DNA of 64,000 nt from an uncultured Victivallales bacterium (GCA_944391115.1 CALXSJ010000001.1:3169-67168); one strand, 5' to 3'; shown: positions 22,017-53,244, counted from the first letter of the stretch. Made by a program: numbers and translations. Notes: generated by a model from the letters alone, not told the origin.

Positions 22017-22032
22017 AAAGAGGATCTCTTTG

Positions 22033-23079
22033 ATGGATAAGAAATCGGAATACGTGATTCTTTACGAGGAGCTGAAGCAGCATATCCGCAACGGCGAAAT
22101 TCCGCCGGGGAACAAGCTGCCTTCGGAACGGGGCTTCATGGAGACCTACCGGATCAGCCGGACGACGGTCCGGAGCGCGCTGGCGCTGCTGGAGCGGGAG
22201 AAGTATGTGAAAAAGCAGCCCGGCGTCGGCTGCATCGTTCTTTCCCGGACGGAAAAGGAACGGCGCGAGAAACTGCGGATCGGGATTTCCCTGTCTTCCG
22301 CCTCGGATCAGACTTACCAGACGCTGCTCTACGAATCCCTGATGCATGCGGCGGAACGCCTGAACGCCGAACTGATTGTGAAGAAGAACCATGAACTGAT
22401 CCGGGGCGAGGGGATCGACGGCGCCGTTTTCATTGCGAATACAAGCCCGGACGAGCTCCGGCGGATGGAAAAGGAATACCGGTCCGGCTGCCCGGTCGTG
22501 TTCATCAACCGCATGCCGGTTCATCCGCAGTTCGCCTATTTTGCCGTGGACTATGAGAACACGTCGCGGAAACTGGTGGCGCGGCTTCTGCGGAACGGAG
22601 CTGAACGCATTGCCATGATCGGCGGGGCGGATCATCCGGGCGACCGGTATTTTGCGGATTATACAAGATCGCAGGGCTGGCGCGCGGCTTACCGCGAGCT
22701 TATGGGCCGTGTGCCGGAAGAACTGCTGTTCCGCACCGGGGAGCTGTATGCGGACCTGGATCTGGTGCGCCGCAGAATCGAACGGTTGCAGCCGCAGGTG
22801 TTTTTTGTTTCCTGCAGCAGTCTGCTGTCTGTTCTCTCCGTGATTCTGAAGCAGATGAACATTGCCGTGGGAAAAGATGTCAGTGTGATATGTTTCGACA
22901 ATGTGGAACGGATCGCGGAAAATATGCGGATTCCGATTTCCTGTTTGAAAATGCCGTTTGCCGAAATGACGGACCGGGCGCTCTCCTATCTTCGCGCCGC
23001 GCAGCGCGGGAATGTGCCTGTCCCGAAGGAGATTCTTGAGGCTCAGCTTGTTGTGGATCAGTGCCATTATCTGTTTTGA
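22033..23079 (+). CDS. GntR-HTH plus LacI-type sugar-binding domain regulator (AraR-like architecture)
   Basis: [23 protein letters not shown]...PGVG wHTH; periplasmic-binding-like C-domain ([14 protein letters not shown]). Confidence 0.9.
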
Positions 23080-23117: not shown

Positions 23118-23972
23118 ATGATGGGTGGGAGACGCATTGCGGTAGGCATGGAGAGAACGGAGCGGTTTTGCGCCGGAACGGGAGTCCTGATCCGGAGGAA
23201 TTTTACCTTGATAGAGCTCCTCGTCGTGATTGCGATCATCGCGATTCTGGCCAGTCTGCTGATGCCGGCATTGACCAAAGTCCGGGAGAAGGCCAGGGGA
23301 ATCCAGTGCGTCAGCAACCTGAAGCAGGCGGGAACGGGAATGCTGATGTATGCCATGGATTTCAATGACTATGCGCCGCTGTCCTACAACACCAGCGACA
23401 GCGGAAGCAAATACAAGCCCGGCTGGGCGGGCATTCTCGCCACTCCCATCGATTCCGCGGACAACAAGGATATTGCGCAGGGATATATCCGCAACTGGAA
23501 GGTTTTCCATTGTCCGTCAAGCAACAACATCCCCGCTCCGGACAAGTACAATTCCGCGAATACCTATGGCATCTGGGAAAGCTGGAACAATCCCGCGGCC
23601 CGTTATGTGGTCAGCCTTTCCGGCGGCAGGCAGTTTGTCGCCCTCCCGATTCGTCTGGTGAACAAGCTTTCCTCCACCATGTATGCGATCGACAATACAA
23701 AGGCCACTCCTTTCACCAATGTGAACGTCGGTTACTGGGCGTCCTCCGCCGACTCCACCGCATTGAGACACAACAATGTCGCGAACGCGGTCTGCTTCGA
23801 CGGGCATGTCAGCTCCAATACCCGGGGCGACTTCATCAGCAAGAGAATTTACCGGCATAACATGAAAGAGTCTTATTTTGTCGATTATGCAAAGTATCAG
23901 GAGGCGATGAAGGATTACCGCGGCTTCAGCAGCGGTTATCTCAGCAACAATATGCAGATCAATCTGCGTTGA
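23118..23972 (+). CDS. Prepilin-type N-terminal methylation protein with H-X9-DG motif (DUF1559-like)
   Basis: RRN|[24 protein letters not shown]...CVSNLKQ; FHCPS; [16 protein letters not shown] (H-X9-DG); RBS GGGAGG. Confidence 0.9.
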
Positions 23973-37007: not shown

Positions 37008-37793
37008 ATGCGAATCTGCCGTCTATGCGCCCCATCTCCGGGTTCCGCTGTTTTCAAGCGGGGCGGGGCAGTGTCCGTTTTGCGGAGAACATACTTTTCT
37101 CTGATAGAACTTCTGGTTGTGATTGCGATTATCGCGGTTCTGGTCTCGATGCTGCTGCCGGGACTTCAGAAGGCGAAAGAAGCCGCGCGCCGGATCAGCT
37201 GCAACAGCCATCTGAAACAGTTCGGAACCGCATTTCATTCCTATGTCGGCGACAGCCGGGATTTTTTCCCGCCGGCGGATCTCAACGATTTGAGCGGGGA
37301 GGAAATCAACAAGAACTACTGGAACTGGGCATGGATGTTCCAGCGGGAAAAATACATTCCGACGGGAAAAATTTATAAATGCCCCACAGCCGCGGGAATC
37401 ATGCCTCCGGAATCCAATTATCATCGTGATCTTGACGTCTTTATCAATACGGTCGGCCCGGGCAGCGCCGCGTCATGGACTTTCATCGGTTACGGTTATA
37501 ACAACAATTATGTCGGGTCCCATAAAAATGTTCTCGGATCCGGAGATCCCAGACGCTGGATTCCAGTGAAACTCTCCGAAATGAAAAAGACATCGGACTG
37601 TTTCCTTCTGGCCGAAACAAAAACGGAATTCAATGCCGGCTCCTATGTCTCCTATTCCAACGGGCTGTATATTCACGATCTGCACAGCGGCGGAACCAAT
37701 CTCCTTTTCGCCGACGGCCACACGGGATATCTCAAAAACGGAAAAACGCACTTGAACAGCGCCGTCACGAAAAAATATTTCACCTGGGAGTGA
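37008..37793 (+). CDS. Prepilin-type N-terminal methylation protein with H-X9-DG motif (DUF1559-like)
   Basis: RTY|[24 protein letters not shown]...CNSHLKQ; YKCPT; [14 protein letters not shown] (H-X9-DG); RBS AAGGAG. Confidence 0.9.
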
Positions 37794-37795
37794 AG

Positions 37796-40699
37796 ATGAA
37801 AACGAAACATTGCGGATTGCTTTTGACAGGAATCCTTTCGGCTTTGACCGCCTCCGCTTCCGGAGCGGAATGTCATCTTCCCTGCATGCCGCCTGCGCCG
37901 GACGCCGCGGCTGCGCTTGAGCGCATGAAGCGGGAGGCACCGCGCCGCCGGGCGCATACGGAACGGCCGTTTCTCTTTGTGCGGACGCAGCTGAAATACG
38001 GATTGGAACGGGACGACTATCTGCATAAATGGCTGGACCGTCCTCTGATGCAGGACTCCTCGCTGGCGAAAGCGGACGATCCCCGGCATTTCATCAATGA
38101 AAACTCTTATCGCCGGATGGCTGCGATGATCCGTTTCGGCGGCATGGACGGAGCCGCCTTTTTCCCGGCGACTTCCGGACGGCGCGATCTTTTTTCCCGT
38201 TCGCTTCTGCCGGAAGCGAAGCTGCCTGTTCTCGTGGAACTGGTTCCCGTGGGCAGGAATCCGCTGGAAACTGACCTTGAAATGGCGGGACTTGCCATGA
38301 AAGCGCCGAACGCTTTCCGCATCAACGGGAAAATTGTCCTGACGCGCTATCCCGGAGGAACACCGGAATATTCCAGGGAACTCAGGCAGAAACTCCGGCA
38401 GCGTTATGGAGATCATTTCTTGTATCTGCCCTATCTGCATTTCAAAACATTTCAGCCGGACAGAAAACTGGATGGAAAAACCATCGAACGCATGAAAGAG
38501 GAGCTGCGCACCGGACTGCGCGCGGCGGACGGCATCTTTTTCAGCGACCGGAGTTCTGTCTGGAAACGCAGATTCAACCTGGATTTTGAGCAGCAGGTCA
38601 TCATCCCGATTTTGAACAGCGTCTATTCCGAAAAGGAGTTTCAGAACAAGATCCTGGGGTATGCCGTGGTTGCGGAACACTCGAATTCCTACCGTTTCAC
38701 GCATACCCTGGACTGCACCGGGACCACCTTCCTGCGGCACAAGCTGGAGGCCGCGCGCTCCCTGCGCCCCGATTTCATCGTCATGACGGAATGGGATGAA
38801 CAGAATGAACATACGCACTTCCGCCCGACGGTCTGCAACTCCTTTTCCACGCAGCGGATCGTCCGCGCCTATGCAGCGCTTCTGGCCGGCGGGAAGCATG
38901 CGCCGCTTCCCGGAGACGATTTGTCCATTCCCAATCTGATTGTCAGCTTCCGCCGGAATCTGAGCGCGGGGGAATGGCTCGAGATGGAAGTCGCGAATGT
39001 TCCGGACGGGACGCTGGATGACGCGGTGTTCCGGATTGATGCGCGTCTGAAGGATCTCAGGGGAAATACGGTAAAAACGTTTTCTCCCCTGTCGCTTCGC
39101 GGCAGCGCGCTCGCGGAGTCCGTCTGGTTCCGGATGCCTTGCGCGGAACTGCTCCGGCATCAGGTTGTCCGGCCGGAAATTTCCGTATCCCGGGGCGGGA
39201 AACGCGTTGTTTTTTCCGACGCCATGGCTGCGATTGAGATTCGCGCCAACTGGAATATGGATTACAAATGGGTGAAACATCCGCTGCGCGATCTTCCGAA
39301 AGGTATCCGGAGCGAGCTTGGCGCGGCGGAAATGCGGCCGGATGGAACGCTGCTGCTGAAAGGAAGAGTTTCCTCCCCGAAAAAACTGCGCAGCGTGGAG
39401 ATTCTGGAAGGGAGCAATGTTGTTTATTCCCATGCGAAACGGGGATTTCCGAAAGAGGATGGCGACACCGTCATCCTGAGCATCGCTCATCAGGCTTCGA
39501 AGAAACGTGTCTTCAACGGCACGATTGCGTTGAACCATGGAGTGGAAGCTGTGAAAGGCGCCCGCGGCGTCAGGTTCCGGGATGGAAAGCTGCTCTACCG
39601 GAATGTGGAATTCAGCCTGTATCCATTTTCCGTCTATCTGGCAGTGAAGCGAAAGGATATGGAAAGCGGAGAACTGATCGTGGATCTGCCTCCGGTGCGC
39701 GGCAGAATCCGAACGGCGGATCTGATGAAACAGGGGATTTTCGGCATCGGCGGTCCGGACGGTTCCAATCTGGTCGTTTCCCGTTTTCTCTCCCAGGAGT
39801 CCATGCCGGAACCGCTATTTGAAAATACGGCGGAGTTTTCCGTGACTGTCCGCCCTCCGGACAAAAAGGCGGTCTATTCAATTCTCGCTGTGGACGAGGA
39901 TTATGGAATTTACCGGGGAAGCGTCCTTTCTCTTTACCGGCCGTCGAACAGAACCCGTGTCATTCACGTGTTTGACATGGAAAGGGAACAGGTGTTTCCC
40001 GTGGAGGCGGACGAGAATCTGCTGACTGATTTCGAATACCGTTTTCTGCCTCAGTGCGGGTCTGTGGTCCCCTGCGCGGCGGGGAGCAAGTACAGCGGCA
40101 TTCTCGGCGGATTTGTCCCTCTGGCGACGGGATACGGTTCCGGCGAAGCCGGATACGGCAATCTGGTGTGGCGATCCCTGCGCGCGGATCTCCCGGGTGT
40201 GGAAAATCAGGCTCCGGAGTATGTCCGGGAATCCGATGGAAGCTGGAGTCTGCAGTTCCGGGACTGCAATTATGTCAGTCTGCCTCTGCATGTGGTTCCC
40301 CCTTACTGCGGATTTGAACTTGAACTCAAAGTCATGCCGGATGCGCTGCCGGAGCGGACTCAAACTCTTTTCAGCAGCGGAATCAACGGGTTTAACCTGA
40401 CACTTTCCGGCGGCAGAGTGTCCGCTGAAATATTCTCCGGCAACCGCTTCTACCGGAAAGGCGGACGTTTTGCGACGGTGAGGGCCTCCGCGGACGGCGT
40501 CAGGGCGAAGGAATGGAACATCATCCGGGTGCTGTTCAGCGGAAGCTGCCTGGAAGTCGAGGTGAACGGAATTTCCGGAAGGAAAGTGTCTTTCTCCGGC
40601 TGTCTCATGCTGCCGCGGGCAACCGCTCTGGGCGCCGCCCAAACGGGGAACCGTTTTTTCCGGGGCAGAATTGCAGGCGTGAAGTGCCAGCCCCGCTGA
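37796..40699 (+). CDS. Large secreted protein: putative TIM-barrel glycoside-hydrolase-like N-domain and C-terminal LamG/ConA-like domain
   Basis: Signal peptide; DFIVMTEWDEQNEHTHFRP resembles the GH71/GH99 WNEwxExT motif; C-terminal beta-sandwich (WNIIRVLF, LEVEVNG, LGAAQ...FFRGRI). Confidence 0.6.
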   Translation: MKTKHCGLLLTGILSALTASASGAECHLPCMPPAPDAAAALERMKREAPRRRAHTERPFLFVRTQLKYGLERDDYLHKWLDRPLMQDSSLAKADDPRHFINENSYRRMAAMIRFGGMDGAAFFPATSGRRDLFSRSLLPEAKLPVLVELVPVGRNPLETDLEMAGLAMKAPNAFRINGKIVLTRYPGGTPEYSRELRQKLRQRYGDHFLYLPYLHFKTFQPDRKLDGKTIERMKEELRTGLRAADGIFFSDRSSVWKRRFNLDFEQQVIIPILNSVYSEKEFQNKILGYAVVAEHSNSYRFTHTLDCTGTTFLRHKLEAARSLRPDFIVMTEWDEQNEHTHFRPTVCNSFSTQRIVRAYAALLAGGKHAPLPGDDLSIPNLIVSFRRNLSAGEWLEMEVANVPDGTLDDAVFRIDARLKDLRGNTVKTFSPLSLRGSALAESVWFRMPCAELLRHQVVRPEISVSRGGKRVVFSDAMAAIEIRANWNMDYKWVKHPLRDLPKGIRSELGAAEMRPDGTLLLKGRVSSPKKLRSVEILEGSNVVYSHAKRGFPKEDGDTVILSIAHQASKKRVFNGTIALNHGVEAVKGARGVRFRDGKLLYRNVEFSLYPFSVYLAVKRKDMESGELIVDLPPVRGRIRTADLMKQGIFGIGGPDGSNLVVSRFLSQESMPEPLFENTAEFSVTVRPPDKKAVYSILAVDEDYGIYRGSVLSLYRPSNRTRVIHVFDMEREQVFPVEADENLLTDFEYRFLPQCGSVVPCAAGSKYSGILGGFVPLATGYGSGEAGYGNLVWRSLRADLPGVENQAPEYVRESDGSWSLQFRDCNYVSLPLHVVPPYCGFELELKVMPDALPERTQTLFSSGINGFNLTLSGGRVSAEIFSGNRFYRKGGRFATVRASADGVRAKEWNIIRVLFSGSCLEVEVNGISGRKVSFSGCLMLPRATALGAAQTGNRFFRGRIAGVKCQPR

Positions 40700-41132: not shown

Positions 41133-42026
41133 ATGAAACGGACAACAACAGCGGGGATTTTGCTGCTTGCCTCCGCCTGTCTCATGCTTTCCGCGCAGGG
41201 GCCGGGCAGACAGCGTTTCCGGAACGGGGAGAATGAGCGTCCCCGGCAGGACAATACCGCGGAATGGGCTGAGGTTCAGGCAACGCTCAAAAAGAAGTAT
41301 CCGGAAAAATTCAAGGAAATTGAAAAACTTCAGGCGGGCAATCTCTATGCTGCGCTGGAGAAAATGCGCGAGCTTGCGTCTGAAGCCTCTGTGACGCTTC
41401 CGTCCGCGAGGCGGGGGGCGCGCGGCGACCGGCGTTTCGGCATGGGCGGCGGCAGGAATGACCGGCGCTCCGGCATGGGGATGTTTTCGAATATGAGGAA
41501 TCAGCGCGCATCTGTGGAAGCGGAACTGAAGAAAAAATATCCCGCGGAATACGCGGAAATTGAAAAACAGCGGATTCAGGCGGAAAATAAGCTGGAAGAA
41601 CTGGCGAAAAAGGCAAATGTCGAGCTGCCCGCGACCATGGAATCCGTTCAGCTTAAAATGACGGAACTGAAGAATTCCGGCAAGTTCAAGGCGGAATTCG
41701 ATGAAATCGAAAAACTTCGTGCGGAGGATCCGCGCGCGGCTTACCTGAAGACCTGGGAACTGATGCAGAAGGCCGGGGTGAAAATGCCGGAAATGCGGCG
41801 TTCCGGGTCTGGCGGATTCAGCCATGCCGGAGCCGGCGAGGATGCCGTTCCGCGCACGCCGAGAGTGAATCCTGTGCGCCAGATCATGGAGCTGCGGAAA
41901 AAATATCCCGGTGAAATGCAGAAACTGGATGCCTTGCGCCGGAATGATCCGGAAGCCTACCGGAAAGGCGTTGTGGAGCTTCTGAAAAAATCCGAAGCCG
42001 AACGCGGCTCCGGATCGAAACCGTAA
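41133..42026 (+). CDS. Secreted/periplasmic helical repeat protein at the head of the T2SS cluster
   Basis: RBS GGAG, signal peptide, four related repeats (LKKKYPEKFKEIEKL, LKKKYPAEYAEIEKQ, KFKAEFDEIEKLRAEDP, LRKKYPGEMQKLDALRRNDP). Confidence 0.75.
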   Translation: MKRTTTAGILLLASACLMLSAQGPGRQRFRNGENERPRQDNTAEWAEVQATLKKKYPEKFKEIEKLQAGNLYAALEKMRELASEASVTLPSARRGARGDRRFGMGGGRNDRRSGMGMFSNMRNQRASVEAELKKKYPAEYAEIEKQRIQAENKLEELAKKANVELPATMESVQLKMTELKNSGKFKAEFDEIEKLRAEDPRAAYLKTWELMQKAGVKMPEMRRSGSGGFSHAGAGEDAVPRTPRVNPVRQIMELRKKYPGEMQKLDALRRNDPEAYRKGVVELLKKSEAERGSGSKP

Positions 42027-42045: not shown

Positions 42046-43272
42046 ATGAAATTTTCCACAATGAAAGAGTTCGCCGTCCTGCTTTTCGCTCCGGGCAGTG
42101 TCCGCTGCTGCTCGTTCCGGCGGGACGCAAAAGGGGTCCGCCTGAAGGCTTTCGCCCATTGCACCCATGATGAAACCGATCCGGCGAAGGCGTGGAAACA
42201 GGTGCTGCGCGAAACCTCGTACAGCCGTGTCTGTCCGCTGATTCTGTCCGGTGCGCTCAAGGGGGGGACGTTCTTCCGCTGCGCCGGGGTCCGGCTTGCC
42301 CCGAAGGCGATGCGCGGCGCGCTGGAATTTGAACTTCCGCAGAGACTGCTCCAGGATACGGCGAATTTTGAACTGGAATTTGTCACGCGTCCTGAGGCGG
42401 CCGAAGGCGAGACGATTCCCGTCAACGTCTATGCGTTTCCCGCCACGGACAAGGAACGTCTGGCCGCGATGCTGACCCAGAGCATCGGAAAGGCGGATTA
42501 TTTTGTCTATCCGCTTCTGGCGCTCCGGGAATCCGACGGGCCCGTTTATCTGCCCGGCATTGAAAGCGATTTCTATTTTTCCGAAGGCGGATGGCATCCG
42601 GTTGCGGAACTTCCGCCGGACTGGCTTTCCTTCTGGGAGAAGGAGATGCGCGGCAGTTTTCTGCTTCCGGAAGAACCGGAATTCAAGCTTTCCGAATGGC
42701 TCGGGTGTCTTCTCTGCGCGCGTCTTGCCGCCGCCGCGGACGTGAAGCATACGTTCGCCGGGCTCAATGTGCTGCCCCGGCAGCTGCGGCCGAGCCGTTT
42801 GCGCAACCAGCTGCGCCTGACCGCGCTGCTGCTGGTTCTGCTGGCCGTGAACTTCGCATGGGGACTGGCCGGCACCCTTTCCGGCAATCACAGGGAGTAT
42901 TCCCGGCTGACTGCCGCCCGGAACCGTCTCCGCACGGAGGTTATGACATCGCAGCGGAAGCTCAAGACGGCGGAAAAGGAGCTGCGCGAGCTTACGCGCG
43001 TCATCAACCAGTCGCCCGGGGAGCGCGATGTGATAGGAAAGCTGGCGCGCTTTTCCGAGGTCCTGCCCAACAATGTCATGGTGACCAATCTGCGCTGGAC
43101 CGACAGCAGTGTCGACCTGACGCTGCGCAGCGAGGCGGAGAGCCTGAACGTTCCGGAGATGATCCGCCCCCTGAAATTCTGGAAGATTGAGCAGATCCAG
43201 CAGCGGCGGAGGAACAACGACACGACGAACACGATCATGCTGAAACTCGTTTCCTCGGAGGAGCGAAAATGA
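42046..43272 (+). CDS. GspL/PilN-like inner-membrane assembly protein
   Basis: Long cytoplasmic N-region, TM (LTALLLVLLAVNFAW), coiled coil, PilN-like C-domain (LPNNVMVTNLRW...LTLRS); position in the T2SS operon. Confidence 0.7.
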   Translation: MKFSTMKEFAVLLFAPGSVRCCSFRRDAKGVRLKAFAHCTHDETDPAKAWKQVLRETSYSRVCPLILSGALKGGTFFRCAGVRLAPKAMRGALEFELPQRLLQDTANFELEFVTRPEAAEGETIPVNVYAFPATDKERLAAMLTQSIGKADYFVYPLLALRESDGPVYLPGIESDFYFSEGGWHPVAELPPDWLSFWEKEMRGSFLLPEEPEFKLSEWLGCLLCARLAAAADVKHTFAGLNVLPRQLRPSRLRNQLRLTALLLVLLAVNFAWGLAGTLSGNHREYSRLTAARNRLRTEVMTSQRKLKTAEKELRELTRVINQSPGERDVIGKLARFSEVLPNNVMVTNLRWTDSSVDLTLRSEAESLNVPEMIRPLKFWKIEQIQQRRRNNDTTNTIMLKLVSSEERK

Positions 43273-43952
43273 ATGATAAGATCAAGGCGTTTCTGAAAAC
43301 GGGAAAGGGCAAGCTTGCGGTTGCCTGTGGCGCGCTCCTTCTCAGCTGGATTTTCCTTCTGACCCAGCTGGGCGGAAGCTTTTCCTCCTGGTTTCCGAAC
43401 GAGGCGCGAAAGGAAGCGCTGCGCAAGGAGATCAAAAAACTGGAAGCCGAACAGGCGGAACAGCAGAAAAAGCTCCGGGAAATGGACGAGGTTCAGAGGA
43501 AATACCGCGGCATGATCGAGAACAGCTGGCAGTATGAACGCGACGGTGATCCGGAACTGCTGCTCCGCCGGGCGGTGGAGATTACGGCAAAGGAAACGGA
43601 AATCAGCCTCAACAACCTCGGTTCCGTTCGTACATCGCGCATCAATGACGATTTTTATTTCGCGGAACTGGACGTTTCTTTCAGCGCGCCGTTTGAAAAT
43701 CTGATGCATTTCATTGCGAAACTGCAGGCGAACAAGCCGGCGCTTCCCTGGCGGCGCATCACGGCGAATCTGTCGATGCGTCCGCCGCATCAGCAGAATA
43801 CCCGCGTCGTGTCGAACACCGCGACAACCGCCGCCACCCAGACTACGCTCATGTTCAACGGGACGATCCGCGTGATCGCCTTTGACGGCGAACTGCCGCC
43901 CGAGGGAAAGACGCTTGCGCGCATTCCGCAGCGTCGGGGAGGAAGAAAATGA
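43269..43952 (+). CDS. GspM/PilO-like protein
   Basis: N-terminal TM, coiled coil, ferredoxin-like C-domain (ELDVSFSAPFENLMHFIAKL); ATGA overlap. Confidence 0.7.
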   Translation: MNDKIKAFLKTGKGKLAVACGALLLSWIFLLTQLGGSFSSWFPNEARKEALRKEIKKLEAEQAEQQKKLREMDEVQRKYRGMIENSWQYERDGDPELLLRRAVEITAKETEISLNNLGSVRTSRINDDFYFAELDVSFSAPFENLMHFIAKLQANKPALPWRRITANLSMRPPHQQNTRVVSNTATTAATQTTLMFNGTIRVIAFDGELPPEGKTLARIPQRRGGRK

Positions 43953-44851
43953 AAACAGCTTTGATCCTGTTCAATGTCTTTCTTGCCGCAATGCTTCTCT
44001 GGGGGGTTGCCTCCCATTTCAAGTCTGCGGATAAAACCGTTTACACCGTCAAGAAACATTCCTCGGTCCGTCCGGTGAAGACTCCCGCAAAGTCGGTTTT
44101 GAAAGTATCCGAGACACGCAAAAAAGAGATGACGCCGGACGAGCAGCTTGCAAAGATCATCGAAACCAATGTCTTCAATGCCGACCGCTGCCCCAATGCG
44201 AGCACGCCCGGCAGAAATACCCGTGTCGAACTTTCTCTGGTCGGAACATTTAAAATCGGGGACTGCGTGGGCGCCATTATCAAGCAGAAGGGATCCGGCG
44301 CTCCCGCGCGGCGGAATTTCCCGTTTCCCCAGGGCGGTCCGCTTCCGCCGGGAATCATGCCTCCAGGACGGCAGATGGGAATCTCGCGAAATGACAGAAC
44401 GGAAAATGTCAACACCACCAACACGCGCGGTGCGGCGCGCGGCGTCCGGGGACAGATGAAGGCGATCTTTTCCAATATCACCGTGGCGGCCGCAGGCAAT
44501 CAGGTTTCCTACAAGCAGTATGTCCGGCTCGGAGAGACGCTCAGCAACGGGTATACGCTGGCCGAAGTCAACCGCGACAGCGTGCTTCTGACCCGCGGCA
44601 GTGACAAACTTGAACTCGAACTGCTTGACGCTTCAAAGAATGCTCCGCAGACGGTGCGGCGGACGAACCGGCGCGTGAACACCGGCACCCAGATGCTCCG
44701 GACTCTCCAGAACATGCAGCGCATGCAGATGTTCCAGAACAGACAGATGATAAACATCATGCGCCAGAACATGAACCGGCAGCAGGCGCAGCCGCAGCAG
44801 AGCGCCACCGGCAACATGCGGACGAACCGTGCACGCACCGGACGACGATAG
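43949..44851 (+). CDS. GspC-like protein (HR domain, no PDZ, Q/M/R-rich tail)
   Basis: N-terminal TM, NVFNADR, LSLVGT...GAII, VRLGETLSNGYTLAEVNRDSVLL. Confidence 0.65.
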   Translation: MKTALILFNVFLAAMLLWGVASHFKSADKTVYTVKKHSSVRPVKTPAKSVLKVSETRKKEMTPDEQLAKIIETNVFNADRCPNASTPGRNTRVELSLVGTFKIGDCVGAIIKQKGSGAPARRNFPFPQGGPLPPGIMPPGRQMGISRNDRTENVNTTNTRGAARGVRGQMKAIFSNITVAAAGNQVSYKQYVRLGETLSNGYTLAEVNRDSVLLTRGSDKLELELLDASKNAPQTVRRTNRRVNTGTQMLRTLQNMQRMQMFQNRQMINIMRQNMNRQQAQPQQSATGNMRTNRARTGRR

Positions 44852-44886
44852 AAAGATGCAGTAAAATAACATAGGATGCCCCAGAA

Positions 44887-47280
44887 ATGATTGATGTTGT
44901 GCAAAACCGAATGAAGCTCCGGATTTTCCGGATCGCAGCGCTGCTGTTCGGCGTGCTGCTTCTGCAATCCTGTTCCCATCTTCAGAAAGATCTGGACGAG
45001 ATCACGCAGGACGCCCCGGAAAAGAAGGAGGAGCCGGGAAAAGCCGACCGTTTCGCTTTCCTGAAAACCGAGACGAGGGAAATCTCCAAGGTGCGCGGCG
45101 CGACCGAGAGCATCAACGAGGAGCTGGTTCAGACCAATGCGGAACGGGAGCTGCCTTCGAATTTGAAAAGCAAAACCGAAAAGATTCCCGTGACCGCGCT
45201 TGCGCCGAAGCCGGAGACGCCGAAGACGCCGCTGCACTTCTATGACGATTTCGTAATCCTGAACGGCGACGAGGAGATCACCGTGAATCTGGTGTTCAAC
45301 AGCGCCCCGCTGCTGGACGTGATTCCCTCCTTTGCGGACGCGCTCGGATTCAACTTCCTGGCCGACAGCGATCTCAAGGGGGTCGTTACGCTGAACATCG
45401 ACCAGAAAATGACCAGGAAAGAGCTCTGGGACACCTTTGACAAGATGCTGAATCTCTCGGGAGCCGGCGTCACGGTCGAGGGCACCCTCCTGCGGATCAT
45501 GGCGCTGCCGAAGGTCGCGAGACAGTCCGATTCCCGCCTTGCCGTCGACGGAAGCGGCGAACTCTTTTACTATCCGCTCAAGAACACCACAGCCAAGGAA
45601 GTCGTCAACCAGATCAAGCCGTTCATCGGGAAGGATGCGGTCTGTGTCGAGCTGACGCGTCCGAACGCGGTCATGATTGCCGACGACCGCGCGAACATGC
45701 CGAAGCTCAAGCAGCTGCTCGACATCATCGACATGAGCGGAAAAAGCGCATGGAAGCGCAAAATCCTCCTCTGCTCGAACATTCTTCCGAGCAAACTGAC
45801 CAATGAGCTCAAAACCATTCTTCCGGTTCTCGGATTCAACGTCCAGCAGATCACGGACAAGACCGAGACGCCCGGTTCCGTCCAGATCAACGGACTCGAC
45901 CGCCTTCACATTCTGGTTGTCTCCGCCGCGACCGAGGAGGCGATTCAGGAGATTCAGCAGTGGGTGGATCTCCTTGACAGCTCGAACTCGCTGGATCAGG
46001 AGCGTGTGTTCGTCTACAAGGTCCGCCACAACAAGGCGTCCCAGCTGGCGCAGGCGCTTTCGATCATCTACGACATTCAGGGATCGAGCCTGACGATTGA
46101 CACCACCACCGGCAATACGAAAATGGAAACCGTCAATTCCACCCAGACGAACCGCAACCGGAACACCAACACCAGGACGCCCGCCGGACAGATCGACATC
46201 AACAGCACGGAAAACACGCTGACCGACCGGAATTCCAATGTGTTCAACACCCCGGTCCGGGTGTTCGCCGACGGCGTGCTGAACCGTCTCGTGGTTCGGA
46301 CGACGCCGCGCACCTACGCCTCGATCAAGGCGCTGCTCAACCGCCTGGACGTCGTGCCTGCGCAGGTGCTTCTGCAGGTGCTCATCGTCGAGGTCTCTCT
46401 GACGGAATCCACCCAGTTCGGCATTGAGCTTTCCGGCGCCTACAACGGAAGCAAGACCAACTCGCTGATCGGCACCAATTACACGGATCTCACCACGCCG
46501 ACCACCTCGACGATCAAGGACGAGAATACGGGGGAAATCACCAGAACGACGAACCGCCAGACCGGATTCAGCTATTTCCTTACCGACCCGGACAATCCCA
46601 GCAACAAGTTCGCCTATATCCGCGCGCTCGCCGGAAACGGAAACACGAAGATCATCTCCAGTCCGCAGCTGCTGGTTTCCAGTCATACCGAGGCGAAGAT
46701 CAACGTCGGCACCGAAGTGTCCGTCATCACCGGATCGATCACAAACACCTCCTCCTCCGGGAGCATGTCCAACACCTATGACTGGGAAACCACCGGCGTG
46801 ACGCTTACCGTGACGCCGCAGATCACCAGCAACGACCTGATTTCCCTGAAGGTCGAGCAGGAACTTTCCAGCGTCGATTACACGAATTCGACCGCGGAGA
46901 ATCCGAACCCGAACAAGAACAACCGCAGCATCACCACGAACATGACGATCGCCAACGGGAAAACGATGATTCTCGGCGGACTGATCCAGGAGCAGAAGAC
47001 CGATAAGCTCGATTCCGTGCCGATCATCAATCAGATTCCCATTCTGCGGCGCCTGATCGGTTCGACCGACGCATCCGTGGACCGCACGGAGATTCTCGTG
47101 CTCGTGACCGGCTATATTGTCAACGAACGCAACAAGGTAGAGGAGCTGATCGAGCGTTACAACGACGCTCTGAAGGCGCTGAACGACTTCGACGACAATC
47201 TCTCCGGCAAGAACGGCGTGTTCCTCTCCAAACCGCGCATCATGACAACGAAGGAGTTCTGGTCCAATGACCTCTTCTGA
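44887..47280 (+). CDS. gspD: Type II secretion system secretin
   Basis: Lipobox LLQSC, N0/N domains, QVLLQVLIVEV, KIISSPQLLV, TGVTLTVTPQI, GKTMILGGLI, PIINQIPILRRL, EILVLVT. Confidence 0.95.
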   Translation: MIDVVQNRMKLRIFRIAALLFGVLLLQSCSHLQKDLDEITQDAPEKKEEPGKADRFAFLKTETREISKVRGATESINEELVQTNAERELPSNLKSKTEKIPVTALAPKPETPKTPLHFYDDFVILNGDEEITVNLVFNSAPLLDVIPSFADALGFNFLADSDLKGVVTLNIDQKMTRKELWDTFDKMLNLSGAGVTVEGTLLRIMALPKVARQSDSRLAVDGSGELFYYPLKNTTAKEVVNQIKPFIGKDAVCVELTRPNAVMIADDRANMPKLKQLLDIIDMSGKSAWKRKILLCSNILPSKLTNELKTILPVLGFNVQQITDKTETPGSVQINGLDRLHILVVSAATEEAIQEIQQWVDLLDSSNSLDQERVFVYKVRHNKASQLAQALSIIYDIQGSSLTIDTTTGNTKMETVNSTQTNRNRNTNTRTPAGQIDINSTENTLTDRNSNVFNTPVRVFADGVLNRLVVRTTPRTYASIKALLNRLDVVPAQVLLQVLIVEVSLTESTQFGIELSGAYNGSKTNSLIGTNYTDLTTPTTSTIKDENTGEITRTTNRQTGFSYFLTDPDNPSNKFAYIRALAGNGNTKIISSPQLLVSSHTEAKINVGTEVSVITGSITNTSSSGSMSNTYDWETTGVTLTVTPQITSNDLISLKVEQELSSVDYTNSTAENPNPNKNNRSITTNMTIANGKTMILGGLIQEQKTDKLDSVPIINQIPILRRLIGSTDASVDRTEILVLVTGYIVNERNKVEELIERYNDALKALNDFDDNLSGKNGVFLSKPRIMTTKEFWSNDLF

Positions 47281-48856
47281 AGCGAAGAGCATTTCCCCGC
47301 GCGAAAAACTCAAGGAGCTTTTCGCCGCGCGCTTTCCCGATTCCCCCGGGCCCTCCCGCGAAGGGGACCGCGCGCTTGTGCAGTCCTCCGCCGTCACGGA
47401 GCCGGAGCTGATTGCCCTGTATTCGGAGGCATACGGGGTTCCGGTGCTGCCCGAGGATGAGATCCGCCAGCCGGAACCCTTCCCGAATGCGCCGCTGGAA
47501 TTCTTCAATGCGAACGTCTGCCTTCCTTATGAGTGGGAGGAGGATTCGATCACCTTTCTCGTCGTGGATCCCTATGCGCTGGATCAGCTGGCGTTTCTGG
47601 TTCAGAAGACCTGGAAGCTGAAGGCGGAGTTCCGTTTTGTCCGCCGGACGTTTCTCGAACGTCTGCTCAGCAAGGCGCAGAGCATGGAGGAGGACGACGA
47701 GGAGACGGCGGTCGACGTCGATGACGAAAACACGCTCCGCACGATGGCGGGCGAGGCGCGGATCGTCCGGCTTGTGAACGACATCTTCACGCAGGCGATC
47801 GAGCTTGGCGCCAGCGATATTCACGTTGAGCCGGACGAGGATCATGTCGCGGTCCGCTGCCGCGTGGACGGCGTGCTCACCGAAATCATCAGCTGCCCGC
47901 TGAACCAGTTTCCCGCGATTGCTTCGCGCATCAAGCTGCTCGGCGGGCTCAACATTGCCGAGAGCCGTCTGCCGCAGGACGGGCGCACCAACGTCCAGCT
48001 CGGACGCACCGAACTGGACATGCGCATCAGCACGATCCCGATTCTGACGGGGGAGAGCATTGTCCTCCGCCTTCTGAATCAGGACGCGATCACCTTCGAT
48101 CTTCAGACGCTCGGGATGTCGCCGGAGCATCTTGCGCAGTTCCGGCGTCTCATCAGCATTCCGCACGGCATGATTCTCGTCGTCGGTCCGACCGGAAGCG
48201 GCAAGACCACGACGCTGTACAGCGTAATCAGCCAGCTGAACGACAGCCGCAAGAAAATCATCACAGTCGAGGATCCCGTGGAATACAAGATGCGCGGGCT
48301 CTGCCAGATGCAGGTCAACGCCAAGATCGGCGTGACCTTCGCCAACGGACTGCGGAGCATCGTCCGTCAGGACCCGGACATCATTCTCGTCGGCGAGATC
48401 CGCGACCGCGAAACGGCGGACATCGCGATCAACGCCGCGCTCACAGGACATCTGGTTCTGAGCACGCTGCATACGAACGATGCGGTCGGCGCGGTGACGC
48501 GCCTCATCGATATGGGCGTGGAAAACTTTCTGGTTTCGTCCGCGCTTTACGGCGTGCTTTCGCAGCGGCTTGTCCGGAAAATCTGCACCGTCTGCCATGG
48601 AAAAGGAACGGATGAACACGGGGCGAAATGCCGCCGCTGCAACGGCAGCGGATTCAAGGGCCGCTCCGGAATCTTTGAACTGCTGTTCCTGGATGATGAA
48701 CTGCGCACGGCGGTAAACCGCAACGCGTCTAGTTCGGAACTTCAGGAAATTGCGGTCCGGCACGGCATGGTGACGCTGCAGCAGGACGGTGCGTCCAAGG
48801 TGGCCGCGGGCATTACCACGCAGGAGGAGCTCAACCGCTCCACCGCCGAACTGTAA
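47267..48856 (+). CDS. gspE: Type II secretion system ATPase
   Basis: ASDIHVEP, RLPQDGR, Walker A GPTGSGKTTT, TVEDPVEY, RQDPDIILVGEIRD, CTVC/CRRC. Confidence 0.97.
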   Translation: MTSSEAKSISPREKLKELFAARFPDSPGPSREGDRALVQSSAVTEPELIALYSEAYGVPVLPEDEIRQPEPFPNAPLEFFNANVCLPYEWEEDSITFLVVDPYALDQLAFLVQKTWKLKAEFRFVRRTFLERLLSKAQSMEEDDEETAVDVDDENTLRTMAGEARIVRLVNDIFTQAIELGASDIHVEPDEDHVAVRCRVDGVLTEIISCPLNQFPAIASRIKLLGGLNIAESRLPQDGRTNVQLGRTELDMRISTIPILTGESIVLRLLNQDAITFDLQTLGMSPEHLAQFRRLISIPHGMILVVGPTGSGKTTTLYSVISQLNDSRKKIITVEDPVEYKMRGLCQMQVNAKIGVTFANGLRSIVRQDPDIILVGEIRDRETADIAINAALTGHLVLSTLHTNDAVGAVTRLIDMGVENFLVSSALYGVLSQRLVRKICTVCHGKGTDEHGAKCRRCNGSGFKGRSGIFELLFLDDELRTAVNRNASSSELQEIAVRHGMVTLQQDGASKVAAGITTQEELNRSTAEL

Positions 48857-48871
48857 CGCGGAGGATTCCGG

Positions 48872-50089
48872 ATGGGGCTTTACAAATATCTTGCCGCCGC
48901 CAGAGGCGAACCGCCGCATGAGATGCTGATCGAAGCGGACAATGAGAAGGAGGCGCTGAACAAACTGCGCAGCCGTCAGGTTACTCCGGTGCGTTTTTAC
49001 GGGGAAGTCTCCGTCGGGGGGAAAGGGAAACTGCTGTTCCGCCGTTCCAAAATCGACACCTATGATTTCACGCGTCAGCTTGCCCCGCTTCTGGATTCCT
49101 TCATTCCGCTGGAAAAAGCTCTTGCGATCATTGCCGAAAGCGCCGTCGAGCCGGAACAGCGCGATTTTGTCAACTCTCTCCGGCAGGGGCTTCACGAAGG
49201 GAAAAAATTTTCCGAGCTGGTGCGTTCCCACGGGTCGCTGTTTCCGGGATATTACGCGAATCTGATCGAGAGCGGCGAGGAGACCGGCTGTCTTCCCGAG
49301 GTGGTCGGACAGCTCTACAAGTTCATGGGGGAGAGCAAGGAGCTCAAGGACTTCATCATTTCGAGCTCGATCTATCCTCTTGCGATTCTTTCGATCACGC
49401 TGATCGTGACGGTGCTGCTGTTCACTGTTTTCGTGCCCCGCTTTGCAAAGATTTTTCAGGACATGGGACGGGAAATGCCTCCCTCGATGAACTTTCTCCT
49501 GGGAGTCAGCGCCTTTGCCTCCTGGGCATGGTGGGTGATTCCGTGTGTCGCGGCAGGCGCCTGGACCGGGCTCAAGAAATTTTTCGGAGAGGAAGCGTTC
49601 CGCTATAATTACAGCCGGTTCCTGCTTTCGCTGCCGCTGTTCGGGCGGATCATCGTGGATCTGGAGATGTGCAAGTACATCCGCACGCTTTCGATTCTGA
49701 TTGCAAATCATGTGGAGATCATCCGGACCGTTCGGATTTCCGGAAGAATCCTTTCCAACCCTGTGGTGGCCAAGGCGTTCGGCGACATTTCGCGCAAGCT
49801 CAAGGGCGGGGCGAAGCTTTCCGCCGCGCTTGCGGGGAACGCGTTCGTGCCAGCCGGAATGGTGCCGATGCTGCGGGTCGGCGAGGAGTCCGGAACCGTC
49901 GGCGAGATGCTTTCGCGTATCGCGAACCATCTGGAAAACGACACGCGCCTGAAGATCAAACGTCTGCTGAGCCTTTTCGAGCCGGCGGTGATTGTGTTTC
50001 TGGCTCTGGTGGTTCTGATTGTCGTGGTATCGATTTTTGTGGCTATGATGGAAATCAACTCAATCAGTCAAGGAGGACCCAAGATATGA
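48872..50089 (+). CDS. gspF: Type II secretion system inner membrane platform protein
   Basis: FTRQLAPLL, SGEETG, SSIYP, VGEESG, LFEP; two T2SSF repeats. Confidence 0.95.
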   Translation: MGLYKYLAAARGEPPHEMLIEADNEKEALNKLRSRQVTPVRFYGEVSVGGKGKLLFRRSKIDTYDFTRQLAPLLDSFIPLEKALAIIAESAVEPEQRDFVNSLRQGLHEGKKFSELVRSHGSLFPGYYANLIESGEETGCLPEVVGQLYKFMGESKELKDFIISSSIYPLAILSITLIVTVLLFTVFVPRFAKIFQDMGREMPPSMNFLLGVSAFASWAWWVIPCVAAGAWTGLKKFFGEEAFRYNYSRFLLSLPLFGRIIVDLEMCKYIRTLSILIANHVEIIRTVRISGRILSNPVVAKAFGDISRKLKGGAKLSAALAGNAFVPAGMVPMLRVGEESGTVGEMLSRIANHLENDTRLKIKRLLSLFEPAVIVFLALVVLIVVVSIFVAMMEINSISQGGPKI

Positions 50090-50508
50090 AAAGAAAGAAA
50101 TGGAAAAGAACGGACTTCACCCTGATCGAAGTCGTCGTCGTGATCATTATTCTGGTCACGCTGGCGTCCATTGCGACGCCGCTCTATCTGAACTACGTCA
50201 AGAAGGCGAACGTCGGCGCAGCCAAGACGCAGATCAAACTCCTGGAAGAGGCGCTGACCGGTTTCCGTCTGGACGTCGGAAGCTATCCGGATTCGACCGT
50301 CGGACTCCGCGCGCTGGTCGAGAATGTCGATCAGAACGCCAAATGGAACGGTCCTTATCTCCAGCCCTCCGTCCCGAAGGACCCCTGGGGCAATGATTAC
50401 ATTTACGTGTTTCCCGGCGAGCACCGCGAATTTGACATCATGAGTTACGGCGCGGACGGACAGCCCGGCGGCGAAGGCGAGAATGCCGACATTACGAACT
50501 GGGAATAA
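50086..50508 (+). CDS. gspG: Major pseudopilin
   Basis: KRTD|FTLIEVVVVIIIL; AKTQI, FRLDVGSYP, WNGPYL, PKDPWG, SYGADGQPGGEGENADI; RBS AAGGAGG; ATGA overlap with gspF. Confidence 0.96.
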   Translation: MKRKKWKRTDFTLIEVVVVIIILVTLASIATPLYLNYVKKANVGAAKTQIKLLEEALTGFRLDVGSYPDSTVGLRALVENVDQNAKWNGPYLQPSVPKDPWGNDYIYVFPGEHREFDIMSYGADGQPGGEGENADITNWE

Positions 50509-50521
50509 ACGCGTTCCGGCT

Positions 50522-50598
50522 TTTCCCGCGGAACTGTCTGTTGCCAGGAGTCCCGCGGGAGGTTTTCATGATCTCTTCTGAATTCTGTCCGCGGGAAA
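50522..50598 (+). promoter_or_regulatory. Symmetric stem-loop between gspG and gspH
   Basis: TTTCCCGCGGA (50522-32) and TCCGCGGGAAA (50588-98) are perfect inverted repeats around the palindrome TCCCGCGGGA (50551-60). Confidence 0.6.
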
Positions 50599-50602
50599 CG
50601 AA

Positions 50603-51142
50603 ATGAAAAGACAGAGACGGTCTCCTTTGCATTTCACGCTTCTGGAGCTTGTCGTCGCCATCGCGATCATTGCGCTGACGACGGCGCTGGCCGTTTCCGC
50701 CTTCCGGGGCGAATCCCCCGCGCGGCAGATGGAAAGCGCAGGGCTCCAGTTTGCGGCGTTCTGTGCGAAAGTCCGCTTTCAGGCCCTGGAAAACGGCGCG
50801 GACCGCATGGTTGTGTTCTATCCCGAAACCCGGACGTTTAAAATGGCGGTTCCGGAAGAGTTTCAGGCGAAGGAAGAGGAGGCGAAGGAGGAAGAGGAGA
50901 AGAAACTGCGCCTTGCGGCAATCGAATGGACGCTGCCGGAAAATTTCGAGCTTGGAACCGAGTTTGCGGACAAGGAGCGGGAAATGGAACAGGAGTATTT
51001 TGAACTGTTCCGCTTTTTTTCCGACGGCGGAGCCTCCGGAAAACTCAAATTCGAGTTGCGTTATCAGATGCTCCGGAAGGTCTTCGACATCTCTCCTCTG
51101 ACGGGACTGCTGACGCAGAATGAGGGAGACGAAGAAACATGA
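50603..51142 (+). CDS. gspH: Minor pseudopilin H-like
   Basis: PLH|FTLLELVVAIAII; position after gspG. Confidence 0.8.
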   Translation: MKRQRRSPLHFTLLELVVAIAIIALTTALAVSAFRGESPARQMESAGLQFAAFCAKVRFQALENGADRMVVFYPETRTFKMAVPEEFQAKEEEAKEEEEKKLRLAAIEWTLPENFELGTEFADKEREMEQEYFELFRFFSDGGASGKLKFELRYQMLRKVFDISPLTGLLTQNEGDEET

Positions 51143-51561
51143 ATCGGAGATCCCGGCCGTTTTTCACCTTGATCGAAGTTGTTGTCGCGCTCGGAATTCT
51201 GGGCCTGAGCATCACTGGACTGCTTTCCCTTCTGATTGCCTCGCAGAAGCGGATCGCGACCGGTTATGAAAAGTGGGAGCATATGCATATGCTTGCCCAG
51301 GCGGCGGAGTATTTCATGCTCATGGGCGAGGACCCCGGCGGCATTCCCGAGGAATTCTTCCCCTACAAGGGATACCGGATCACGGTCGCTTACGAGGATG
51401 TCTCCGACGAACAGGTGCCGGACGATTACAGCAATCTCCTCGGACAGCTGCCTTTGAAATGCATGGTGGTGACGCTGGAACGGGAAGGCGACGGCAAGCA
51501 GCTGGATCAGATCAGAATCGACAGGATCAGTTATGAAACGGCAATCGGAAACGAGGAATAG
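51139..51561 (+). CDS. gspI: Minor pseudopilin I-like
   Basis: RPF|FTLIEVVVALGILGL; ATGA overlap. Confidence 0.8.
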   Translation: MNRRSRPFFTLIEVVVALGILGLSITGLLSLLIASQKRIATGYEKWEHMHMLAQAAEYFMLMGEDPGGIPEEFFPYKGYRITVAYEDVSDEQVPDDYSNLLGQLPLKCMVVTLEREGDGKQLDQIRIDRISYETAIGNEE

Positions 51562-52240
51562 GACAAAAGGATGGTTCACGCTGGTGGAAATCATCGTCGC
51601 CATGGCGATCATGATCTTCGTCGCGCTGATTATCGCCTCGGCGTCCATGACGTTTTACAACGCGTGGCGGCGTTCCGTCAGGATCAGCGACCTGCTGAAA
51701 ACCTATCAGACCATTGACCGCATCATGGACAACTGTGTCCGCAACATGATCCCGTTCACCTGGCGCGACGAGGATCTCAATCAGGAGCGGGTCGTATTCA
51801 AGGGCGAACCCGACAGCATCCATTTCACCGCCTTGCGCCGCGCATACCGGAACGACAAGGGGGCGCTGATCTTCCTCCGCATCAAGGTGGAAAATGAACA
51901 GCTTGTTGCCGAATATTCCCAGTATCCGCGCCTGCAGTGGAACGAGGACGACTCCGAACAGAACTCCTATACCCGCGAGGTGCTCGCCGACCGGGTCCGT
52001 TCGATCACCTTCCGCTATGCGACAGAGGAAAACGACGAGCTGGTCTGGAACGACACCTGGGAAGAGGATCTGAACCTCAACGTCTCCCGCACCAATCCCC
52101 GTCCCGCGATCCCGAACAGCTCCCGCACGTTCCTGATTCCGATCGCCGTCCAGATGACGGTCGAATGGACCGACGGCAGAAAGGAAATCTGGCTCCGCCG
52201 GACTGCCGGGAATTCCAAAAACACCCAGCTGCTGCTTTGA
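51533..52240 (+). CDS. gspJ: Minor pseudopilin J-like
   Basis: KGW|FTLVEIIVAMAIM; IRFRYA and PIAVQMTVEW-type C-terminal motifs. Confidence 0.8.
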   Translation: MKRQSETRNRTKGWFTLVEIIVAMAIMIFVALIIASASMTFYNAWRRSVRISDLLKTYQTIDRIMDNCVRNMIPFTWRDEDLNQERVVFKGEPDSIHFTALRRAYRNDKGALIFLRIKVENEQLVAEYSQYPRLQWNEDDSEQNSYTREVLADRVRSITFRYATEENDELVWNDTWEEDLNLNVSRTNPRPAIPNSSRTFLIPIAVQMTVEWTDGRKEIWLRRTAGNSKNTQLLL

Positions 52241-52248
52241 GGAAGACC

Positions 52249-53244
52249 ATGAGACCCAAGAGATTCCGGAAAAAGAGAGAAGAGAAGGGCTCCGCCCTGA
52301 TTGCGGCGCTCTGTCTGATTTTCACGGCCGGCATGCTGACCGCGTCCGTGCTGATCCTTTCCCGGATTTCCACTTACGACATTGCCGCGCATATTGATCT
52401 TCAGCGCTCTTCCTACCTCAACGAGGGCGTCATGAACCGCGTCCAGTGGCTGCTTGCCGCGGAACAGAACCTTTATCCGGACCGTGCGCTGGGAGATATC
52501 GATTATACGGAATACGACCATGACCGCTATATGGCCGACGGCGTGACTCACGAGATGGATTACTACGGGACCAAAGTGTATTTTTCGATCACGGACGCCA
52601 GGTCCGGGCTCGACCTCAGCCGGAGCGCATTCCGCTCCACCCTGCAGCGTCTCGGCACGCCGATCGACACGGAAACCGAGTTTATCGACCAGTTGAGTTC
52701 GATTCGCGACAAGATCAGTGATTATTACGACACCAATGATGAAGTCGCGCTGGACGGCATGGAGGCCGACGAATACGAGGCGGAAAACATGGCGCCCCTC
52801 CCGCGCAACTCCTCGACAAAGGTGCTCCGGGAGGAGTTTTTCTACATCCCCGGCCTGATCGACCTGTTTCCGCCGGACCGTTTCGGCCGTCTGAGCATCA
52901 TCCGTCTGCTTCGCGCTCCGACGGGCTCTCCGACGTTCTTTACCGCCACGCCGCTGCTGCTGAAGGTTTACTGCAATTTGGAGGACGAGGAGATCGAGGA
53001 GGTGCTTGCCGCGCGGGAGGTCTGGTTCAGGGAACGCACCACGCTGCGCGATCAGCTCGATCCGATGCTGTATGCCGCGCTCGGCACTCTCTCCTGGCGG
53101 GAAAGCGGCACTTATACGATTCTGATCGGACAGAAGGAGAAGCCGGAACGCCCCACGCGCCGGCTTGCCGTCTCCTTCGAGCGGTTCGACGTCACGGGCG
53201 CTTCCGACAACAATGTAAAGCTGATCGAGTGGATGCAGTACTGA
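52249..53244 (+). CDS. gspK: Minor pseudopilin K-like
   Basis: EKG|SALIAALCLIF (no Glu5, as in GspK); ITDARSGLDL; last gene of the cluster. Confidence 0.8.
   Translation: MRPKRFRKKREEKGSALIAALCLIFTAGMLTASVLILSRISTYDIAAHIDLQRSSYLNEGVMNRVQWLLAAEQNLYPDRALGDIDYTEYDHDRYMADGVTHEMDYYGTKVYFSITDARSGLDLSRSAFRSTLQRLGTPIDTETEFIDQLSSIRDKISDYYDTNDEVALDGMEADEYEAENMAPLPRNSSTKVLREEFFYIPGLIDLFPPDRFGRLSIIRLLRAPTGSPTFFTATPLLLKVYCNLEDEEIEEVLAAREVWFRERTTLRDQLDPMLYAALGTLSWRESGTYTILIGQKEKPERPTRRLAVSFERFDVTGASDNNVKLIEWMQY

Follow-up and report, generated by a model that had tools for sequence, protein, structure and literature searches.

Loss of the glycine at position −1 of prepilin-type signals across Lentisphaerota points to an unstudied leader-processing specificity

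Substrates of the bacterial prepilin peptidases PilD/GspO (family A24A) carry a class III signal, described by the models PS00409, TIGR02532 and PF07963, in which a short basic leader is followed by Phe+1, Glu+5 and a hydrophobic helix of ~20 residues. Glycine at position −1, Gly(−1), is regarded as the defining residue for prepilin cleavage: PS00409 and pilin-finding tools have it built in, and explanations of how GxGD aspartyl peptidases choose their substrates rely on it. Here, a 64,000-nucleotide stretch from an uncultured gut Victivallales bacterium (GCA_944391115.1, CALXSJ010000001.1:3169-67168; hereafter, the window) was analyzed, which carries a type II secretion system (T2SS) operon as well as two genes for H-X9-DG/DUF1559 prepilin-type proteins. 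Six of its proteins share the leader, Phe+1, Glu+5 and helix of the class III signal but lack Gly(−1). This loss is a trait of the phylum Lentisphaerota, not of the window, and it points to a leader-processing specificity that is as yet unstudied.

The window was scanned in six frames for [FMYWLIV][TSA][LMFI]xE followed by a hydrophobic stretch, which returned exactly six pilin-like open reading frames (ORFs) and a single non-pilin false positive at 27737 (minus strand). In all six ORFs, a basic leader precedes F-[TS]-L-[IVL]-E, after which come 15 or more hydrophobic residues, and their −1 residues are Asp, His, Phe, Trp, Asn and Tyr, with Gly in none. Four encode T2SS pseudopilins on the plus strand. 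The major pseudopilin gene gspG (50086-50508; 151 bits against the TIGR01710 cut-off of 88.85), with a ribosome-binding site (aaggagg) upstream of its start, encodes the leader MKRKKWKRTD (50086-50115), in which six of 10 residues are Lys or Arg. Its site reads KRTD↓FTLIE (the arrow marking the predicted site of cleavage), with Asp(−1) at 50113-50115 and the Phe codon at 50116; the DNA across it, read directly, is aga acg gac ttc acc ctg atc gaa. The gspH-like minor pseudopilin gene (50603-51142), identified by weak TIGR01708 and XpsH matches and by the motif scan, has the leader MKRQRRSPLH and the site SPLH↓FTLLE (His(−1), 50630-50632; Phe codon, 50633). The gspI-like minor pseudopilin (51139-51561), found in the motif scan and with weak matches to related models only (XpsI and ComGE), has the leader MNRRSRPF and the site SRPF↓FTLIE (Phe(−1), 51160-51162; Phe codon, 51163). 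The gspJ-like minor pseudopilin (51533-52240), with weak PRK08808, TIGR01711 and PF11612 matches, has the leader MKRQSETRNRTKGW and the site TKGW↓FTLVE, in which Trp(−1) at 51572-51574 is preceded by Gly at −2 and followed by the Phe codon at 51575. The remaining two sites, in the H-X9-DG proteins, are IRRN↓FTLIE (protein 1; Phe codon, 23202) and RRTY↓FSLIE (protein 2; Phe codon, 37095). These are the six −1 residues given in a first-pass annotation of the window, and both the motif scan and the DNA agree with it; so does the translation of GspK, the one pseudopilin that was said to keep Gly(−1). Its gene identities likewise hold, with GspG above the TIGR01710 cut-off and GspH, GspJ and GspK weakly matching their own families.

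The same annotation treated the absence of Gly(−1) as a peculiarity of the window, which is not borne out by comparison with other genomes: the loss is phylum-wide, and Gly is still tolerated. T2SS loci were collected from one genome per species (the complete Lentisphaerota genomes CP071032.1, of strain zth2, and OY787460.1 being among those returned), yielding 24 Lentisphaerota loci and ~55 outgroup loci from Pseudomonadota, Desulfobacterota, Nitrospirota, Omnitrophota and others. Only 6 of ~93 GspG/H/I/J ORFs from the Lentisphaerota loci have Gly at −1 (two of the 93 are false positives that are not pilins), and the position takes 17 different residues, including Pro, Arg, Trp and Asp. In the outgroup loci, −1 was Gly in 170 cases and Ala in four, with four further non-pilin false-positive matches (Fisher p=2e-53 against Lentisphaerota). 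Measured against the outgroup frequency (Gly or Ala in 174/174 real pseudopilins), six non-Gly residues out of six in the window are far beyond chance; measured against the Lentisphaerota background (~6% Gly), they are as expected. The four outgroup proteins with Ala(−1) are minor pseudopilins of loci L054, L062, L067 and L072 (KYA↓FTLVE, IRA↓FTLIE, YRA↓FTLLE and QSA↓FTLLE, respectively), and they are the only natural non-Gly cases outside Lentisphaerota in this sample.

Three other origins of the pattern were considered and ruled out. An assembly artefact is incompatible with the identical GspG protein on at least 22 contigs from independent assemblies; a mis-called start that places Met at −1 is incompatible with the −1 codons, none of which is a start codon; and chance is dismissed as the cause of Gly loss by the outgroup comparison (p=2e-53).

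Turnover at −1 is also visible among close relatives. The best 120 homologues of the window's GspG are all from Lentisphaeria (65-93% identity), the nearest named ones being Victivallis, Victivallales and Lentisphaeria metagenome assemblies (75-78% identity), and their −1 residues are Ser (23), Gly (20), Ala (19), Arg (16), Pro (12), Asn (12), Cys (5), His (4), Asp (3), Phe (3), Gln (1) and Thr (1). Across 112 unique Lentisphaeria GspG orthologues, −1 has an entropy of 3.1 bits and is among the most variable leader positions, while F+1, T+2 and E+5 are invariant; Arg or Lys is found at −3 in 99/112 (88%) and at −4 in 90/112, and the leaders, 9-13 residues in length, contain a mean of 5.3 Lys/Arg. 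GspG pairs that are at least 85% identical over the mature region differ at −1 in 53% of cases, and the closest relatives of the window's GspG switch between Asp and Gly. This turnover among closely related proteins looks like neutral drift, with Gly tolerated but not required; Gly(−1) persists in 17-20% of Lentisphaerota GspG and H-X9-DG sequences.

A position that evolves without constraint, as if read by no enzyme, could mean that the leader is never removed, and that pseudopili and H-X9-DG proteins function with it attached; that no peptidase was found in the searches described below would fit as well. The known role of E+5 is to pair with a free amine at the N-terminus, and PulG or pilin that retains its leader is not known to assemble, which counts against such an arrangement. 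The invariance of F+1, T+2 and E+5 also argues for cleavage, as does the persistence of short, highly basic leaders, the layout expected of a class III signal that is cleaved. Membrane extraction of a leader with ~5 positive charges is itself unlikely, and the specific retention of Gly in GspK (see below) would be hard to explain if nothing were cut. Function with the leader in place is, on this evidence, distinctly unlikely.

The basic residues at −3 and −4, the most conserved positions of the leader, lend themselves to another explanation: the Gly rule may be weaker in this sequence context, so that an ordinary PilD-type enzyme still cuts, or cleavage may occur in another register, for example, after the Arg or Lys at −3. 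The persistence of Gly in a minority of sequences would be consistent with this, and archaeal PibD is indeed more permissive than FlaK (PMC4307647). Yet 174/174 outgroup pseudopilins that share the FTL[IL]E context have Gly or Ala, so that ordinary enzymes clearly select for Gly, and cleavage at −3 would leave two variable residues ahead of Phe and put Glu at +7, a poor fit with the invariant F+1. Moreover, −1 mutants of Pseudomonas aeruginosa pilin, made in an FTLIE context, reportedly were not cleaved. Either version of this explanation is therefore considered improbable.

GspK provides an internal control for these comparisons. The gspK-like minor pseudopilin gene of the window (52249-53244, plus strand), based on the gene call and weak T2SS_GspK and T2SSK_1st matches, encodes the N-terminus MRPKRFRKKREEKG↓SALIAAL (EKG↓SALIAAL), which has Gly at −1 (52288-52290) and neither Phe+1 nor Glu+5. 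Gly(−1) is kept in the GspK of 19/22 Lentisphaerota loci, versus 6/93 for GspG/H/I/J in the same genomes (p=9e-14), suggesting that substrates can do without Gly only if they carry the F...E motif. The GspK sites conform to the motif E-x-G↓[SVA]-A-L in 19/22 loci. In three related loci (L021, L039 and L052), GspK has His or Asn at −1 (RHH↓AAL or RHN↓AAL), such that Gly has been lost in one sub-clade.

The same freedom at −1 extends to the H-X9-DG proteins, both of which show visible H-X9-DG motifs together with a prepilin-type N-terminal helix and a DUF1559 region. Protein 1 (23118-23972, plus strand) scores 31.4 bits with PF07596 and protein 2 (37008-37793, plus strand) scores 45.1 bits, against a cut-off of 23.3. 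Protein 1 reads ...LIRRN↓, with Asn(−1) at 23199-23201, although its start is uncertain (28 leader residues when counted from the ATG at 23118, with starts that give a shorter leader also possible); protein 2 reads ...LRRTY↓, with Tyr(−1) at 37092-37094, and starts at the ATG at 37008 or else at a GTG within the ORF. Scores with the prepilin models straddle their cut-offs: TIGR02532 gives 21.9 and 18.1 bits for proteins 1 and 2 (cut-off, 16.3), aligned only from model position 4 and thereby skipping the Gly, and PF07963 gives 18.7 and 17.0 bits (below the cut-off of 21.2). The H-X9-DG model TIGR04294 gives 18.8 bits for the ORF at 37008 (cut-off, 19). A full HMMER search of 1.84 billion representatives placed the family in 211,348 clusters (50% identity) at E≤1e-3. 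Among the best 150 of these representatives, Gly is found at −1 in 29/146, and 17 other residues make up the remainder; many leaders are no longer than 4-6 residues (e.g., MKRL↓F and MKKI↓F), and Lys or Arg occurs at −2 to −4 in 123/146. Looking up the clusters gave one named organism only, a Lentisphaeria bacterium. With −1 unconstrained in both groups, the tie that the first-pass annotation drew between H-X9-DG proteins and T2SS pseudopilins is upheld, and the two probably share one maturation route, judging from their common signal pattern.

Each H-X9-DG gene is followed directly by a gene for a large protein whose N-terminus has a hydrophobic, signal-like segment. The partner of protein 1 is a polysaccharide lyase family 8 enzyme (24055-26379), and the pair is preceded by a GntR/LacI-type regulator (22030-23079); the partner of protein 2 is a 969-residue protein with a ConA-like lectin/glucanase domain (37790-40699). 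DUF1559 is named 'SBP_bac_10' in Pfam, and the gene arrangement is reminiscent of the class III signals carried by sugar-binding proteins of archaea.

Non-Gly prepilins were also sought with a degenerate DNA pattern that has a non-G first base in the −1 codon, which matched one viral contig and at least 121 metagenome loci. The viral-class contig (IMG/VR IMGVR_UViG_3300005259_000078; match, 3030-3073) carries a non-Gly prepilin-type gene beginning MKRKRN↓. A chronic phage of a Lentisphaerae strain has been reported with a 'Type II secretion system protein' gene in the supplement, and laminarin induces T2SS genes in a Lentisphaerae strain (PMC11361711).

The reading favored here, with a probability of roughly 0.6, is that the class III signal of Lentisphaerota has lost its requirement for Gly(−1), and that it is cut before Phe+1 by an enzyme that is blind to the P1 residue and likely belongs to family A24. 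GspG, GspH, GspI, GspJ and the H-X9-DG/DUF1559 proteins would still be made with a short basic leader, most likely removed exactly before Phe+1. The enzyme would most likely be a GxGD-type aspartyl peptidase of family A24, encoded elsewhere in the genome, with an S1 subsite that takes almost any side chain. Substrates would be recognized by the basic residues at −2 to −4 and by F+1-T-L-I-E+5 at the start of the transmembrane helix, and in GspK, where the F...E motif is absent, Gly(−1) would still be needed as a fallback determinant.

Cleavage in the canonical register is suggested by the invariant F+1, T+2 and E+5, the short basic leader, the canonical mature GspG and the Gly kept in GspK. The globular domain of GspG is canonical (E=2e-21 to structures 3fu1, 4lw9 and 3gn9), including the C-terminal GADGxxGGEGxxADI segment, and alignment to the 5wda pseudopilus structure pairs its residue 11 (Phe) with residue 1 of mature PulG; together with the unchanged E+5, this alignment would fit a free N-terminus at Phe+1. 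The first-pass annotation had offered two explanations: either the S1 pocket of the prepilin peptidase is relaxed, or pseudopili are assembled from unprocessed subunits. The first is favored by the invariant F+1, T+2 and E+5 and by the Gly of GspK, and the second is disfavored, so that the proposal is supported in part. In a more far-reaching reading, hundreds of prepilin-type proteins per Lentisphaerota genome would be served by a peptidase without P1 preference (a strongly remodelled A24 or a non-A24 enzyme) that has co-evolved with the expansion of H-X9-DG/DUF1559 proteins, as a bacterial counterpart of archaeal PibD and the bindosome; this is doubtful and is offered tentatively.

Two sets of observations weigh against a P1-blind A24 enzyme. 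The first concerns the specificity of known peptidases. Cleavage of P. aeruginosa pilin by PilD and of PulG by PulO is said to need Gly(−1), with Ala tolerated. FlaK of Methanococcus voltae also needs Gly in archaellins, as determined by mutagenesis (reviewed in PMC4307647). Since the known enzymes need Gly, the proposed one would differ from every characterized bacterial enzyme. The second is that no A24 gene was encountered: a GxGDxK motif scan of the window gave nothing plausible, and A24 was found neither in ~16 kb past the window ends (~7-9 kb on each side), nor in ~0.43 Mb of Lentisphaerota T2SS loci (motif scan and phmmer), nor in 0.67 Mb of metagenome contigs with non-Gly prepilins. 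In all, ~1.2 Mb was sampled without A24, which is too small for a claim of absence, as only ~0.2-0.5 hits are expected at one gene per 4-8 Mb genome. The phmmer seed, which together with the motif gave no other match in 80 T2SS loci and the window, was the sole A24 gene met, which lies in a Desulfobacteraceae metagenome-assembled genome (locus L023, 18508-19299, minus strand). None of the other 79 loci has an A24 prepilin peptidase gene less than 10 kb from gspG; the GspG of this locus is the closest one outside Lentisphaerota (51% identity), and its pseudopilins keep Gly(−1). A tblastn search against plasmids for a seed peptidase from the Planctomycetes-Verrucomicrobia-Chlamydiae (PVC) superphylum returned Proteobacteria only, and the sampled contigs contained a single secretin fragment in place of second type IV filament loci. 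In Pseudomonas, the peptidase gene pilD/xcpA lies elsewhere than the T2SS operon.

The empty A24 search in ~1.2 Mb of Lentisphaerota-type sequence, limited as that sample is, would also suit an A24-unrelated membrane protease that cuts before Phe+1 and replaces or supplements GspO/PilD. Such an enzyme would explain the total loss of P1 preference more easily, and the mitochondrial T2SS (miT2SS) keeps a GspG with E+5 and no GspO homologue, a metallopeptidase having been proposed instead (PMC8134430). On the other hand, only T2SS genes are conserved around the operon: in 23 Lentisphaerota loci there is no conserved non-T2SS gene nearby that could serve as an alternative peptidase candidate. The Gly kept in GspK hints that a Gly-reading enzyme is still active, and to our knowledge A24 enzymes serve all the type IV filament systems of bacteria that have been studied. 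A protease from outside this family is unlikely, and a P1-blind A24 peptidase encoded elsewhere in the genome is the preferred candidate.

The pseudopilin genes are part of an operon (42046-53244, plus strand) that is a complete T2SS apart from GspO, with L and M assigned by size and position only. The order D-E-F-G-H-I-J-K, with the upstream genes, is kept in 17-23 of 23 Lentisphaerota loci (gspH synteny in 20/23, and gspI and gspJ kept in 22/23 each). Secretin gene gspD (44887-47280), ATPase gene gspE (47267-48856) and inner-membrane platform gene gspF (48872-50089), all on the plus strand, have TIGR02517 (329 bits), TIGR02533 (541 bits) and TIGR02120 (290 bits) as their best NCBIfam matches, below the respective equivalog cut-offs of 351, 630 and 424. 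They are preceded by three plus-strand genes, at 42046-43272 (408 residues), 43269-43952 (227 residues) and 43949-44851 (300 residues, GspC-like). The third of these scores 28.5 bits with PF11356 (T2SSC; cut-off, 27), and the first two have no Pfam match. Size and position, together with the T2SSC match, suggest that the trio represents the L, M and C assembly components, L and M from size and position alone; it is kept with the operon in 17-19 of 23 Lentisphaerota loci. Start and stop codons overlap between gspF and gspG (ATGA, 50086-50089), gspH and gspI (4 nucleotides, 51139-51142) and gspI and gspJ (29 nucleotides, 51533-51561), suggesting that the pseudopilin genes are translationally coupled. 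The gene that immediately precedes the T2SS genes (41133-42026) encodes a 297-residue protein, which has an N-terminal hydrophobic, signal-like segment and ~4 internal repeats of KKKYP-x-E-[FY]-x-EIEK; it belongs to no Pfam family and is present in all four contigs of the species.

Full-text literature searches returned no paper that notes the absence of Gly(−1), whether for Lentisphaerae or for PVC bacteria. Databases already annotate these proteins as prepilin-type, so the sequences are not new, and it is the broken Gly rule that seems to have gone unremarked. The residue has been dropped across a phylum, from a complete T2SS and from a family of more than 200,000 representative clusters (50% identity), and motif-based pilin prediction under-calls Lentisphaerota proteins. 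A prepilin peptidase with a different recognition rule should exist, and its comparison with PilD would reveal determinants of the S1 pocket; if it is P1-blind and has co-evolved with the H-X9-DG proteins, its specificity rule would be new to the type IV filament superfamily. A shared maturation route would also bear on how polysaccharide degraders of the gut and the sea display or secrete proteins, and the existence of cultured strains, namely, Victivallis vadensis and the deep-sea strains zth2 and WC36, makes the question testable.

Compared with described systems, the Lentisphaerota T2SS is canonical in its GspG globular domain, its D-E-F-G-H-I-J-K order and its C/L/M-like genes upstream. 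It departs from the bacterial class III signal in that ~85-94% of substrates lack Gly(−1) and have almost any residue instead, and so from PROSITE PS00409, which requires Gly, as do the characterized enzymes. There is no peptidase gene in or near the Lentisphaerota operon within the sequence sampled. Substrates of archaeal PibD mostly have Gly, Ala or Ser at −1. PibD tolerates substitutions around the cleavage site, accepts leaders of 3-4 residues and has many non-pilus substrates, including sugar-binding proteins (PMC4307647). Likewise, many Lentisphaerota H-X9-DG leaders are very short (4-6 residues), and their genes adjoin polysaccharide lyase and lectin/glucanase-like genes; PibD differs from the Lentisphaerota case in being archaeal and without a methyltransferase domain. 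The miT2SS offers a further parallel, with a GspG that has a polar anchor and Glu+5, no identified A24 enzyme and an open processing route (PMC8134430), a likeness that for Lentisphaerota is limited to the sampled sequence. It is, however, a eukaryotic system with fewer components and a sequence for mitochondrial targeting, whereas O is the only component missing from the Lentisphaerota T2SS in the sequence sampled. A natural departure from Gly is also seen in streptococcal ComGC-type pilins, which have Ala at −1. Their Ala is a small residue, within the known tolerance of PilD-type enzymes; in Lentisphaerota, by contrast, −1 is not limited to small Ala.

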